A DNA stretch of 64,000 nucleotides, from NCBI GenBank assembly GCA_041395385.1, contig JAWLAN010000006.1:398548-462547 (forward strand), read 5' to 3'. Below, one piece after another: positions 27,748 to 31,573 of the stretch (its first letter is position 1; each line of letters begins with the position of its first letter). The notes under the pieces are model-generated. The model searched no databases, was not told where the DNA came from, and saw only the letters and a list, made by a program, of their open reading frames with translations. The stretch is from Gammaproteobacteria bacterium (GTDB taxonomy: Bacteria; Pseudomonadota; Gammaproteobacteria; JAJPIJ01). The position numbers and the translations under genes were made by a program.

Positions 27748-28107
27748 TTACTGCAAGAGTCGACGCCCTTCAATCTTAACGTCCCCGCTAACCACTTTCC
27801 AGAAATTGGATAGCTTCCTCGCGATCTGATAGGCAAACGCTCGCCCGACATCTGGCCCCTCTTCGTCGAACTCCTTACGAATTTCTATTCCAAGTATCTC
27901 TTCGTATTTCCTGATTGTTCTCTTGTTATGGACTAGAATCAGCGGCTTCCAGCCAACGTGCCTACCTATCATGTAGAAGCCAACCGCTTGCTCGATTTCC
28001 TCGAATGTTCCGTCATACCGCACAATTGCCTTGTCAAGAAGATCGATAATTCGCTTTGCCTCTTGAGCACTCGCCGCCGCCAAGTTGCCTTTCGTTTTTC
28101 GGCCCAT
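27748..28107 (-). CDS. hypothetical protein (island cargo, low GC)
   Basis: 119-aa ORF, third gene of the co-directional low-GC cargo cassette; no recognisable motif. Confidence 0.55.
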   Translation of the reverse strand: MGRKTKGNLAAASAQEAKRIIDLLDKAIVRYDGTFEEIEQAVGFYMIGRHVGWKPLILVHNKRTIRKYEEILGIEIRKEFDEEGPDVGRAFAYQIARKLSNFWKVVSGDVKIEGRRLLQ

Positions 28108-28195
28108 TTAATGGACTCCCAGCATTTCGCGTAGCCCGCCCACAGGCTACGCATACTCCCTTTGGCGTGCAACCACAACCATAGAAAGCCCGACC

Positions 28196-29536
28196 CTATT
28201 TCTTCCTGGAGGTGTGAAAGACCACCCGACTAGTGCTGCCAGAAACCACCAACAACCGTTCGAACTCGTTGGTAAAAATGCGAATTACCTCCGACAAATC
28301 TCTATCGGAACTAGCTCTCCAAGCAGCGTCAGTAGCATCACGATATTGCGCCAACGCAAACGCGCGGTAAATTGGGTCCGAGAACGAGTACAGTCCTGAA
28401 GTTGAGTCATACCTCAGGATTCCGCCGTACTCGGGAGTCGTAAGTCTTGGCAGGATATTTTTTAAATTATATTCGGGATAACTTGGCTCCGCTTGGCGAA
28501 TCCGCTTATGCAGATCAAATCTACTCGCACCACGCTCCGGAGATCGGCACAGCGCTTTAATGACTATAGTCGCATTATCAAACCTAGTCTTTCGCCGCTG
28601 CCTCACTGCACTGTCGAAGGCACTCCTTATGCTATCCGACGCATCTTCGGCATATGCCTTGATCGCCGTTTCAAAATGTTCTTTCGCGAGCGCTATCGGT
28701 GAGCTAACCGTGCAGTGAACTCCGGCCGCATCACACATGTTCAAACATAGATGGTGACACGCCGACGCCAACCCGTTGGAATAGCGAGCAATAAGACTTT
28801 TTATTTCCTTTCCAAAAACAATATTAAGTGCTGCTTCACCCTTGCTAATGATTGCCTCTATTTCTTTTTCCGTCATAAGCGTCACGTGTATTTCGGCAAC
28901 CCGATTTCGCATTTCTCTATCGCAATCGATCACCTGGCGGGCAGTATCCACGGCGCCTAGCGCCACAATTTTTAGTTCCCCATACTCGTCGGCGAGGTCC
29001 ATAAATACTTTCATCAACTGCGACAGTTTGACCTTCTCCGCTTCGTCAATCTTGTGAAAATCCTCAAGTACCCAACAACATTTCGCCGCACCCATGAAAC
29101 GACCAAGCGCTTGGGGCGTGAGTTGAGGCGGCAGGATTCGAACCTCCTTTTCGCTGGTCTCTGTCGTCTTAGTACCTCCAATCTTGGATTGGATATTTAG
29201 GTACGACCCAGCCAGTTCACCAGAAATCGATTTTGAACTTGCAGCAGTGCGTTCAGCGATGTAAAAGGGCGCCAGTTGGTCGAATCCATCCAGTATTAAT
29301 TGTTCAAACGTCAACCCCCGCATACATCGCGTTGTAACATGGTTCTCGTATAATTGATTGAGTTTGTTAATTAGTAATGTGGTCTTCCCCGATCCCGAAT
29401 GCCCATACACAACGACTTGCTTCCCGGGCGTTGTGAGTGCGCTTACGAGCCGATCGTTTACAGCGTCACGCTCTACGAACGCGACCCGGGCTGGCTTCGT
29501 TGGTGTAAATACATCCCGTGCTAAGTATTGTCCCAT
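28196..29536 (-). CDS. P-loop NTPase (AAA+/archaeal-ATPase-like) of unknown function (island cargo)
   Basis: Walker A GHSGSGKTTLL near the N-terminus preceded by F.ERD..N.RL motif resembling the Arch_ATPase family; Walker B hhhhDE (CCWVLEDFHK); about 290-aa C-terminal helical domain of unknown function; low GC. Confidence 0.7.
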   Translation of the reverse strand: MGQYLARDVFTPTKPARVAFVERDAVNDRLVSALTTPGKQVVVYGHSGSGKTTLLINKLNQLYENHVTTRCMRGLTFEQLILDGFDQLAPFYIAERTAASSKSISGELAGSYLNIQSKIGGTKTTETSEKEVRILPPQLTPQALGRFMGAAKCCWVLEDFHKIDEAEKVKLSQLMKVFMDLADEYGELKIVALGAVDTARQVIDCDREMRNRVAEIHVTLMTEKEIEAIISKGEAALNIVFGKEIKSLIARYSNGLASACHHLCLNMCDAAGVHCTVSSPIALAKEHFETAIKAYAEDASDSIRSAFDSAVRQRRKTRFDNATIVIKALCRSPERGASRFDLHKRIRQAEPSYPEYNLKNILPRLTTPEYGGILRYDSTSGLYSFSDPIYRAFALAQYRDATDAAWRASSDRDLSEVIRIFTNEFERLLVVSGSTSRVVFHTSRKK

Positions 29537-29626
29537 CTCGCCCTCCCCGAGTTCGTTTCAGTCTTTCCGAAGTCTGGATCGTTCCTACCGTCGACCATCG
29601 TTGCCCGGATATCTCAGTGGCAATTT

Positions 29627-30205
29627 TCACCAACCGCTAATAGCGTCCATTATTCTGCCGAACAGCGCCACAAGCTTGTCTCCCTTAAGCGCGACGTCAG
29701 TAGTCGCATTCACAACCCTCCATAATTCGCGAAGCTTAGTCACTGTCTCGGTGCCCGAGTTCTCGCGCACAGTTTCCTGGGCCTCAAGCAGTTCCCCGCT
29801 AGCAATATGTGCCGACTCCCGCAATGCCTTAGCCCCGCATATCGGATACCAAGCCAACCCTCGTCTGATAAGTCCAATATGGTGCCGGACCAGAAGTACT
29901 ATGCTCTCTGGTACATTCGAATGCTCTACAAGCGCTTCTAACTCGCTAACTCGACGCTCGATTTCCCCAAGCTCTTCGGCGTCAATAGCCACCTCTTCGT
30001 CATCTAGGATTTCTGCACAGAATGCCAAGGCCGTTAGAGTTTCTGGCTTTATTTGCGAGATGACGTTGCTCCAAGGTCCGTTCAGGAAGCTTGGCTGAAT
30101 ACTGCTTCTCAGCCTTTCCACCAACTTGCTGTACAGCTCCGGACTGAGATCCCGCTCGCCAAGCTGCTTGGCGATTGCCTGGATCTCCCTTTCGACTAGG
30201 CTCAA
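29627..30205 (-). CDS. hypothetical helical protein (island cargo, low GC)
   Basis: 192-aa ORF, first gene of the cargo cassette, predicted all-helical/coiled-coil; no recognisable motif. Confidence 0.55.
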   Translation of the reverse strand: MSLVEREIQAIAKQLGERDLSPELYSKLVERLRSSIQPSFLNGPWSNVISQIKPETLTALAFCAEILDDEEVAIDAEELGEIERRVSELEALVEHSNVPESIVLLVRHHIGLIRRGLAWYPICGAKALRESAHIASGELLEAQETVRENSGTETVTKLRELWRVVNATTDVALKGDKLVALFGRIMDAISGW

Positions 30206-30486
30206 CCTCTCAACGACCGCAAATTGAGTAGAGAGACTGTCCTCAGTCTCTACGCCCAGCAGAAGTGCCCAATTGTCACTAGCAGGTTTAGTGTCCGGAA
30301 TGCCGGCACCTTTTGGAATATGGCAAGCAACCGGGCGGCGCTATTGACTTTCCTGACCATGGATTCCCTCCTCAAATTCCATTCTAGCGCCAGTCCCGTT
30401 TCACCGTGATCCACAGCCGCTGGCGCCTCCGTGCATTGACCCGGGCAAGTTAGCAGCCCGGGTCCACGCCAGCTATGGGCTATGGA

Positions 30487-30887: not shown

Positions 30888-30932
30888 TTCGCAATGCGAA
30901 GGTCGGGGGTTCGATCCCCCCCGTCTCCACCA
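30888..30932 (+). repeat. attR-type direct repeat: duplicated 3' half of tRNA-Ala
   Basis: Exact 45-nt copy of tRNA positions 25197..25241 including CCA end. Confidence 0.9.
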
Positions 30933-31573
30933 TAAATACAATAAATTAGACTTCATTTTCGTCTGGCAATCCCTGCGGTTTTTGATGTAAGTCCGAGATA
31001 AGTCCTCCGTGATCGATCTCGCGACTCTCTTCGCCTCATACGAGGCGGCGCCGCACATAAGACTAATTATTCGGTGGCGCGACGACGAACCGCACTACCT
31101 CGCACAGCCACCCCTGAACCACCGTCTGCCCGTCCTCTAGCCGCTCATAGCCGCGTAGCCGGAGACCGTCCGCAACGATTGCCACGAGGACGGATACATA
31201 GAGCGGAGAAAAGGCCACTTCGGCCATGGACGAATTTGCCAGCTGCAGCGTCGCAACCTGATATGGCCGCTCCCCGTACACTTGGTGATGGGGCTTCAGA
31301 TCGCCCTCGACGGGTGCCATAACCGCTATTTCTCTCCACGGCAATTGCCTGCCTCATTTACGAAGCACCCGGACCCGAACGTGCATAACAGAATACTGTA
31401 CTCATATACAGCGGCCGAGCAGCTCGCTGGCCTCCGCAGCAGTCCCACGCGCCATCGCGGCCAGACAGTCGGTCAGCAGCATGTCCTGGAGGTGATGCTC
31501 GCTGATGTGGACGTCGAAGATGTCGCTCATGTTCGATCGAGAATCGCCACCTGCTTTACGGGTACCAGTATCT

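Follow-up and report, generated by a model that had tools for sequence, protein, structure and literature searches.

A small tRNA-Ala integrative element with a p119-marked backbone, a candidate solo defence ATPase and a frameshifted second cargo gene

Defence islands that integrate at tRNA or tmRNA genes and carry a tyrosine integrase, AlpA and an inovirus Gp2-like protein are a known kind of mobile element (PNAS 2025, PMC12595487, which cites 'phage defense elements'), and PICMI is a minimalist satellite named in PMC11389934. Winged-helix ORC/Cdc6-type ATPases are recurrent scaffolds in BREX-type defence systems (PMC12839542). The PDC families of PADLOC are candidates picked out by their embedding in BREX, DISARM or type I restriction-modification (R-M) systems, and their authors call them untested (Payne et al., bioRxiv 10.1101/2024.01.29.577857). 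Here we analysed a window of 64,000 nucleotides from a Gammaproteobacteria bacterium (contig JAWLAN010000006.1, positions 398,548 to 462,547; coordinates below are those of the window), in which positions 27748-30205 hold three co-directional open reading frames (ORFs) for proteins of 119, 446 and 192 amino acids, named p119, p446 and p192. An earlier note, made from the sequence alone, had taken the three for the cargo of a tRNA-Ala island and for a candidate novel defence-type system of an ATPase with two small partners. We find that the stretch spans the backbone/cargo junction of a 5.7-kb tRNA-Ala integrative element without transfer genes of its own, and that the two cargo genes are unrelated to each other and distributed independently. 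The reading that we consider probable is that of a p119-backbone element in which p446 is a solo defence ATPase acting by DNA obstruction and the second cargo gene, of which p192 is a part, is frameshifted.

Like the islands of PMC12595487 and PICMI, the element lies at a tRNA 3' end between direct repeats and encodes an integrase (Int), an AlpA/Xis-type helix-turn-helix (HTH) protein and an inovirus-type replication initiator (Rep). Variable defence cargo and the lack of autonomous transfer genes are also common to both, whereas the family to which the window element belongs is much smaller (4.7-7.7 kb) and is marked by the p119 gene. The tRNA-Ala island of the earlier note is borne out by a tRNA-Ala(CGC) and exact 46-nt repeats at the attachment (att) sites, which delimit 5,691 bp with six ORFs. 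The features are as follows.

25166..25241, plus strand: tRNA-Ala(CGC), the integration target, whose 3' part is attL (ARAGORN; Rfam tRNA, 65.5 bits)
25197..25242: attL, 46-nt direct repeat, exact copy of 30888-30933
25256..26365, minus strand: tyrosine integrase, backbone (Pfam Phage_integrase, E 4.8e-33)
26194..26547, minus strand: excisionase (Xis)/AlpA-like HTH protein, backbone (Pfam HTH_17, E 1e-8; PHROG excisionase families); its listed ORF overlaps with the start of int
26547..27692, minus strand: rolling-circle replication initiator of the inovirus gpII/RstA type, backbone (Pfam Rep_trans, E 5.6e-24; phrog_453, E 2.7e-75)
27701..27730, minus strand: sigma-70-like promoter match between p119 and rep (TTGACA-18-TAGACT, 10 of 12 positions; a consensus match only)
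27748..28107, minus strand: p119 ORF, 119 amino acids, first gene of the backbone
28196..29536, minus strand: p446 ORF, 446 amino acids, PDC-S59-like candidate defence gene, cargo 1
29627..30360, minus strand: cargo 2, frameshifted copy of a family of about 245 amino acids; the 192-amino acid ORF (29627-30205) is its 3' part and the 5' part lies in ORF 30250-30414
30296..30297, minus strand: 1-nt frameshift in cargo 2 (TTCC-GG in place of the expected TTCCCGG)
30433..30469: inverted repeat of 14 nt, some 75 nt before the ATG of cargo 2
30888..30933: attR, 46-nt direct repeat of the tRNA 3' end (repeat comparison)

The three ORFs exist as described earlier and lie on the minus strand, with gaps of 88-90 nt between them, and homologs support all three as real genes (p446, E 1e-195; p192, E 1e-50; p119, E 3e-40). 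Their low GC content also holds, at 0.49 for p119 and p446 and 0.53 for p192 against 0.67-0.69 in the flanks, with int, xis and rep at 0.58-0.61. The cargo position that had been assigned to all three is right for p446 and cargo 2, which occupy the slot, but p119 is one of the genes of the replication/integration backbone.

The backbone role of p119 is seen directly in its neighbourhoods, which we followed through genomes and metagenomes (loci L042, L045, L047-L126 and L146-L152) starting from 235 homologs of 119-131 amino acids. In 24 of the 27 loci that have at least 3 kb downstream, p119 is followed on the same strand by Rep and/or Int, the usual order being p119, Rep, a small Xis-like gene and the tyrosine integrase; the p119-Rep-Int order is also present in L042, L045 and L146-151. 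The Rep family beside p119 varies. As the Rep of L045 is of another family (REP_ORF2-G2P), p119 goes with the type of element rather than with any single family of Rep. None of the 85 p119 loci holds a relative of p446 or p192. The AlphaFold2 (AF2) model of p119 is all-helical (predicted local distance difference test, pLDDT, 83.5), with no fold match found, and the phage and plasmid collections gave no match to the protein.

Seventeen sister elements were delimited via repeats of tRNA 3' ends, at tRNA-Arg, Phe, Lys, Ser, Met or Gly, with sizes of 4.7-7.7 kb; in each, the 1.1-4.9 kb between the distal att site and the start of p119 are variable. The window element is typical of them (5,691 bp, with a variable segment of 2.78 kb between p119 and attR). 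The ORFs upstream of p119 in the sister elements show almost no mutual similarity. When 58 such ORFs were scanned against PADLOC and Pfam, the PADLOC matches comprised AbiLi/AbiLii, NsnA/B, a type II methyltransferase with restriction enzyme, PD-T4-2, PARIS AriA, TIR-NLR, HEC-01/02 and several PDCs, and the Pfam matches comprised RloB, AAA_21, GmrSD_N, AbiTii, PIN_8, HEPN, TIR_2, Vsr and MqsA; some of the ORFs are insertion sequence (IS) transposases by Pfam. One element carries AbiTii with an IS110 transposase, and another a reverse transcriptase (RVT_1) with an HTH gene. Judged by these family matches, the cargo slot is a defence hotspot within the p119 element family. The locus thus shows what small tRNA-integrating defence-cargo elements show, namely a tRNA with an adjoining tyrosine integrase gene, direct repeats, and a cargo slot whose content varies and includes defence genes in relatives. 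A defence role for the two cargo genes of the window is plausible by this company, which is guilt by location and no proof.

Homologs of the first cargo gene, p446, number more than 1,000 at 60-70% identity and are largely betaproteobacterial, and a genome scan gave 41 loci at 33-68% identity in Beta- and Gammaproteobacteria, Bacteroidota, Campylobacterota, Verrucomicrobiota and others. No relative of p119, p192 or Rep was detected at these 41 loci by tblastn, no neighbouring family was common to more than three of them in all-vs-all clustering, and the adjoining ORFs differ in size, strand and spacing in an adjacency and gap analysis. Because the 41 loci show neither partner relatives nor consistent neighbours, p446 is a one-gene module. 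The 138 ORFs neighbouring its homologs include four integrases, and defence genes among the neighbours are SoFic, MADS components, AriA, type IIG and type I R-M genes, a GajB-like gene, Ppl and DRT.

The earlier note had taken the set for a candidate novel system and had matched neither flanking protein to a described family. Searches of Pfam, NCBIfam, PADLOC and PHROG likewise gave no significant match for p119 or p192, but p446 matches PDC-S59 of PADLOC as well as phrog_6841 (unknown function, E 3.7e-28). Residues 18-366 of p446 align with positions 18-367 of the 428 of PDLC05049, the sole hidden Markov model (HMM) of PDC-S59 (E 4.9e-24, 83.2 bits; the match was judged on E value and bits and not on the per-model cut-offs of PADLOC). 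Members of the p446 family from other phyla (five other lineages) score 85-107 bits against the same model. PDC-S59 is likewise a single-gene module and the match extends over 350 residues; the difference lies in the setting, since PDC-S59 was predicted from embedding in BREX, DISARM and type I R-M whereas p446 sits on a mini integrative element. No mention of PDC-S59 was found in the literature searched. The locus is a typical small defence-cargo integrative element that carries a catalogued PDC-S59-like candidate together with a damaged copy of an uncharacterised family. The defence-type cargo that had been proposed is in keeping with the sister-slot genes and the PDC-S59 match, but the three-gene unit is not upheld, the triad being conserved at none of the loci compared.

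In the plasmid collection p446 has only remote relatives (23-31% identity), and in the phage collection it has no match. One of these relatives (L129, Salmonella plasmid CP074296.1, 4929-6146; 23% identity, E 3e-11, with a weak PDC-S59 match) is flanked by the Tum and portal genes of a P2-like phage-plasmid, a position that we take to be the P2 anti-phage hotspot. Two others, on plasmids of Gloeothece (L127, 4725-6239) and Curtobacterium (L128, 4722-6194), combine a p446-like core with a C-terminal TIR_2 domain and are surrounded by other TIR, caspase-family and papain-like protease genes.

Both motifs that had been pointed out in p446, the Walker A GHSGSGKTT and the Walker B WVLEDFHK, are present and family-invariant; the residues invariant in the family alignment are G45-T53, E158/D159 and R200. 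In Pfam, AAA_16 is above threshold (E 6e-9), while nSTAND1 (21.2 bits against a gathering score of 27.1), TniB (E 0.0053, 16.6 bits against 22.4) and ATPase_2 are below it. The C-terminal 290 residues had been described as a domain with no recognisable catalytic motif; in the AF2 model they complete the AAA+ core and then form a helical lid followed by a winged helix. The model is divided as follows.

Residues 1-215: P-loop core, its strand 2 followed by a two-helix insert
Residues 77-98 and 103-123: helices, after strand 65-70
Residues 223-311: helical lid
Residues 321-398: winged helix
Residues 399-446: poorly conserved, low-confidence tail

Comparison of the model with known structures lists the archaeal AAA+ ATPase SSO1545 (2fna, listed value 12.0), Cdc6 (1fnn, 10.7), PAB2304 (2qen, 10.5), TnsC (9g0f, 10.4), ORC4 and ORC5 (10.3 and 10.1), the wheat G10 NLR resistosome (9h2l, 10.0), MuB (8xvb, 9.9), the ZAR1 NLR resistosome (6j5t, 9.5) and MalT (8bob, 8.6), as well as winged helices of the ArsR/SmtB type (9-10). 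Sequence searches of the PDB with p446, p119 and the p192 family (single-sequence and profile) returned P-loop-level or chance matches only. The features of the ORC/Cdc6 clade are all found in p446: both Walker motifs, a helical insert that follows strand 2, an arginine that follows strand 5 and, toward the C-terminus, a helical bundle with a winged helix. R200, which follows strand 5 in the model, is presumably the arginine finger. On its predicted structure, p446 is an ORC/Cdc6-STAND-like AAA+ ATPase with a lid and a winged helix and without an enzymatic effector domain.

It is nevertheless set apart from the described members of these groups. Identity to the ORC/Cdc6 clade (SSO1545 and PAB2304 of Pfam ATPase_2, Cdc6/Orc1, BrxC/BrxD) is only 11-17%, and the GDAR-type sensor-2 arginine of that clade is, on our reading of the alignment, apparently replaced by a Cys/His-rich helix. 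Unlike BrxC/BrxD in BREX, p446 has no BREX partner genes in its island and no PADLOC Brx match. Compared with STAND/Avs and TIR-NLR proteins it lacks sensor repeats and an effector domain and has no PADLOC Avs or NLR match, and Avs proteins are far longer than its 446 residues. The lack of an obvious match to AVAST noted before is confirmed, p446 having only the NOD-like module, and so is that to Septu, Gabija, PARIS and Lamassu: PADLOC returned only P-loop-level GajB matches (E 0.005-0.02), no PtuA, AriA or LmuB, and no partner gene.

The Cys/His residues were also seen in the family as a whole. C71, C154, C260, H261, H262, C264 and C268 are invariant or nearly so, lie mostly on the lid helix 257-270, and occupy the usual position of the ORC/Cdc6 sensor-2 arginine motif. 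They may be a metal or redox site.

With regard to function, we lean slightly toward a defence role for p446, given its location and its family links. The element would excise through Int and Xis and replicate as a circle through Rep, and since it is without coat, morphogenesis or conjugation genes it would depend on a helper. The p446 protein would act alone as an ATP-driven switch: ATP binding would drive its oligomerisation, as the invariant arginine and the ORC/TnsC/MuB-like fold suggest, and its insert and winged helix would bind nucleic acid and could so keep an invading phage or other mobile element from being replicated or packaged. Obstruction is favoured because p446 has no nuclease, TIR or protease domain; recruitment of a host factor is the alternative.

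Several points weigh against this reading. The obstruction mechanism is a conjecture, as p446 is without a recognisable effector, and the AF2 model is of medium confidence (pLDDT 75; predicted template modelling score 0.56). Housekeeping genes (methylmalonyl-CoA mutase, dehydrogenases, histidine kinases) are numerous around p446 homologs, and defence genes make up only some of the neighbours. The moderate PDC-S59 scores (83-107 bits) suggest that the whole p446 family is a sister clade of the PDC-S59 seed, and PDC-S59 is itself a guilt-by-embedding prediction only. Finally, the frameshift in cargo 2 could be an assembly error; the gene would then be intact and might be functionally linked to p446 in this one island.

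A bolder form of the argument, which we hold to be unlikely, is that p119-Rep-Xis-Int elements are undescribed minimal (about 5-6 kb) inovirus-related satellites that shuttle single defence genes across the tRNA sites of Proteobacteria, that both cargo genes here are new single-gene immune proteins, and that the ATPase, with no enzymatic effector, defends by ATP-dependent assembly on invading DNA.

Two further readings do without defence. Outside defence, p446 might help to maintain or replicate mobile DNA, as an Orc/Cdc6-like initiator, a helicase loader or a TnsC/MuB/TniB-like target-DNA ATPase. Its place on a mobile element near a Rep gene and the sub-threshold TniB match (E 0.005) would fit such a helper; we judge it improbable, as p446 is missing from the 85 other elements that share this backbone, its 41 homologs have no linked transposase or Rep, integrases account for four of the 138 neighbouring ORFs, TIR-fused relatives exist, and the model that the protein matches was made from genes embedded within defence systems. 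A transposition ATPase of the TniB/TnsC/MuB kind was rejected because TniB stays below the gathering score and the island has no transposase (ORF list and Pfam).

The other such reading, to which we give a low probability, makes p446 an ATP-dependent transcription regulator of the MalT/AAA_16 type whose winged helix controls host or island genes. The AAA_16 match and a Walker B of the form hhhhEDxH are in line with this, but p446 has no ligand-sensing repeat domain and no conserved target operon adjoins it, its neighbours being wholly variable; moreover, a patchy spread over distant phyla at 33-68% identity fits a mobile accessory gene rather than a regulator fixed to its regulon.

The second cargo gene had been described as a gene for a 192-amino acid protein, and proves to be the 3' part of a 244-amino acid gene with a 1-nt frameshift. 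A word-indexed search had returned a single homolog of p192, P0122 (245 amino acids, 44% identity), whose N-terminus is 52 residues longer; the counterpart of this extension lies upstream in another frame of the window, in ORF 30250-30414. Adding one C at 30296/30297 (TTCC-GG to TTCCCGG) yields, from the ATG at 30360, a protein of 244 amino acids that aligns without gaps to residues 1-233 of P0122. The ATG is preceded by a GAGGAGG Shine-Dalgarno sequence, and the frameshift cuts off the first 21 codons.

The apparent orphan status of p192 was an artefact of search sensitivity: a full HMMER profile search gave 1,702 representative clusters (50% identity), of which 684 reach E ≤ 1e-10 and 113 reach E ≤ 1e-30. 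Almost every member has 242-258 amino acids and spans the whole profile, so that the 192-amino acid ORF is a shortened reading of a frameshifted gene. The family has no relative in Pfam, PADLOC or the PDB; matches to SepF and DsrK in the p119 and p192 family searches were set aside as sub-threshold noise. To judge from the reading frame, the copy in the window is probably inactive, and the frameshift may be a true pseudogene mutation or an error in a metagenome-assembled genome.

Among the p192-family loci (L046 and L131-L145), the contexts seen for nine proteins (P0122 and eight others) contain no p446 homolog, and a p192-family profile run over all fetched loci matched only the window and L046. 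In L046 the gene belongs to a type I R-M operon, with hsdS on one side, a partial ORF (the hsdR N-terminus, read by eye) on the other, and RhuM next to it. Elsewhere it is followed by an SLFN_AlbA_2 gene and a RES gene, by a DUF2971 gene or by proteins of 283 or 276 amino acids that are dissimilar to each other, is divergent from an AAA_15/AAA_23 ATPase, or stands alone among housekeeping genes.

These contexts bear on an island-specific two-gene system, in which an intact 244-amino acid protein would be a sensor or regulator of p446, in a layout of a conserved first gene with variable second genes. Several family genes do closely precede co-directional unrelated genes (the 283- and 276-amino acid proteins of unknown function, SLFN_AlbA_2 and DUF2971), and in the window p446 follows such a gene after a 90-nt gap. 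Yet the family also occurs solo among housekeeping genes, the 283- and 276-amino acid partners share no similarity, p446 homologs are never found with such a partner, and the window copy is frameshifted, all of which leaves this arrangement with only a slight probability. One defence system of p192, p446 and p119 is very improbable despite their common direction, 88-90 nt gaps and shared low GC, as p119 is kept with Rep-Int in more than 80 elements without the other two, p446 homologs occur in 41 genomes without either partner, p192-family genes lack both p446 and p119 in the contexts of nine members, and the p192 copy is frameshifted; a second member of the triad is present in 0 of 41 p446 loci, 0 of 85 p119 loci and none of the contexts seen for nine p192-family members, the very lack of conservation that the earlier note had named as speaking against its proposal.

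If the favoured reading is right and p446 is shown to be protective, a PADLOC candidate would be validated and an effector-less ORC/Cdc6-type ATPase would join the single-gene immune proteins, raising the question of how so minimal a switch stops a phage. Beyond what had been claimed for the locus, p119 marks tiny tRNA-integrating elements with one hypervariable slot. Since many relatives carry known defence systems in this slot, it could serve as a source of new defence genes, the family of about 245 amino acids among them. The p119-marked elements, this Pfam-less family and immunity by an effector-less ORC/Cdc6-type ATPase all deserve attention.

Some minor observations concern the remainder of the element. 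The Rfam scan gave nothing beyond the tRNA and the att repeat, and promoter and terminator scans gave matches at or below chance level. In tblastn the island Rep matched 165 phage records, for which the organism names given are all of filamentous phages (Ralstonia RSS/PE226, Vibrio CTX-type, Stenotrophomonas and Xanthomonas). A filamentous prophage (inovirus) was considered and rejected: the gpII-type Rep is present, but none of the six island ORFs matched coat or Zot families in Pfam or PHROG, and with no coat or morphogenesis (pI/Zot) match the island is at most a satellite-like derivative. It may be such an inovirus derivative, given a filamentous-phage Rep without coat or morphogenesis genes. 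L042 (NCBI JBFOMS010000871.1, 2000-10130) has a tandem of two Rep-Int elements at a single tRNA-Arg; the proximal copy is 5.3 kb long and bounded by a 45-nt repeat, and the p119 gene is found in this copy only.

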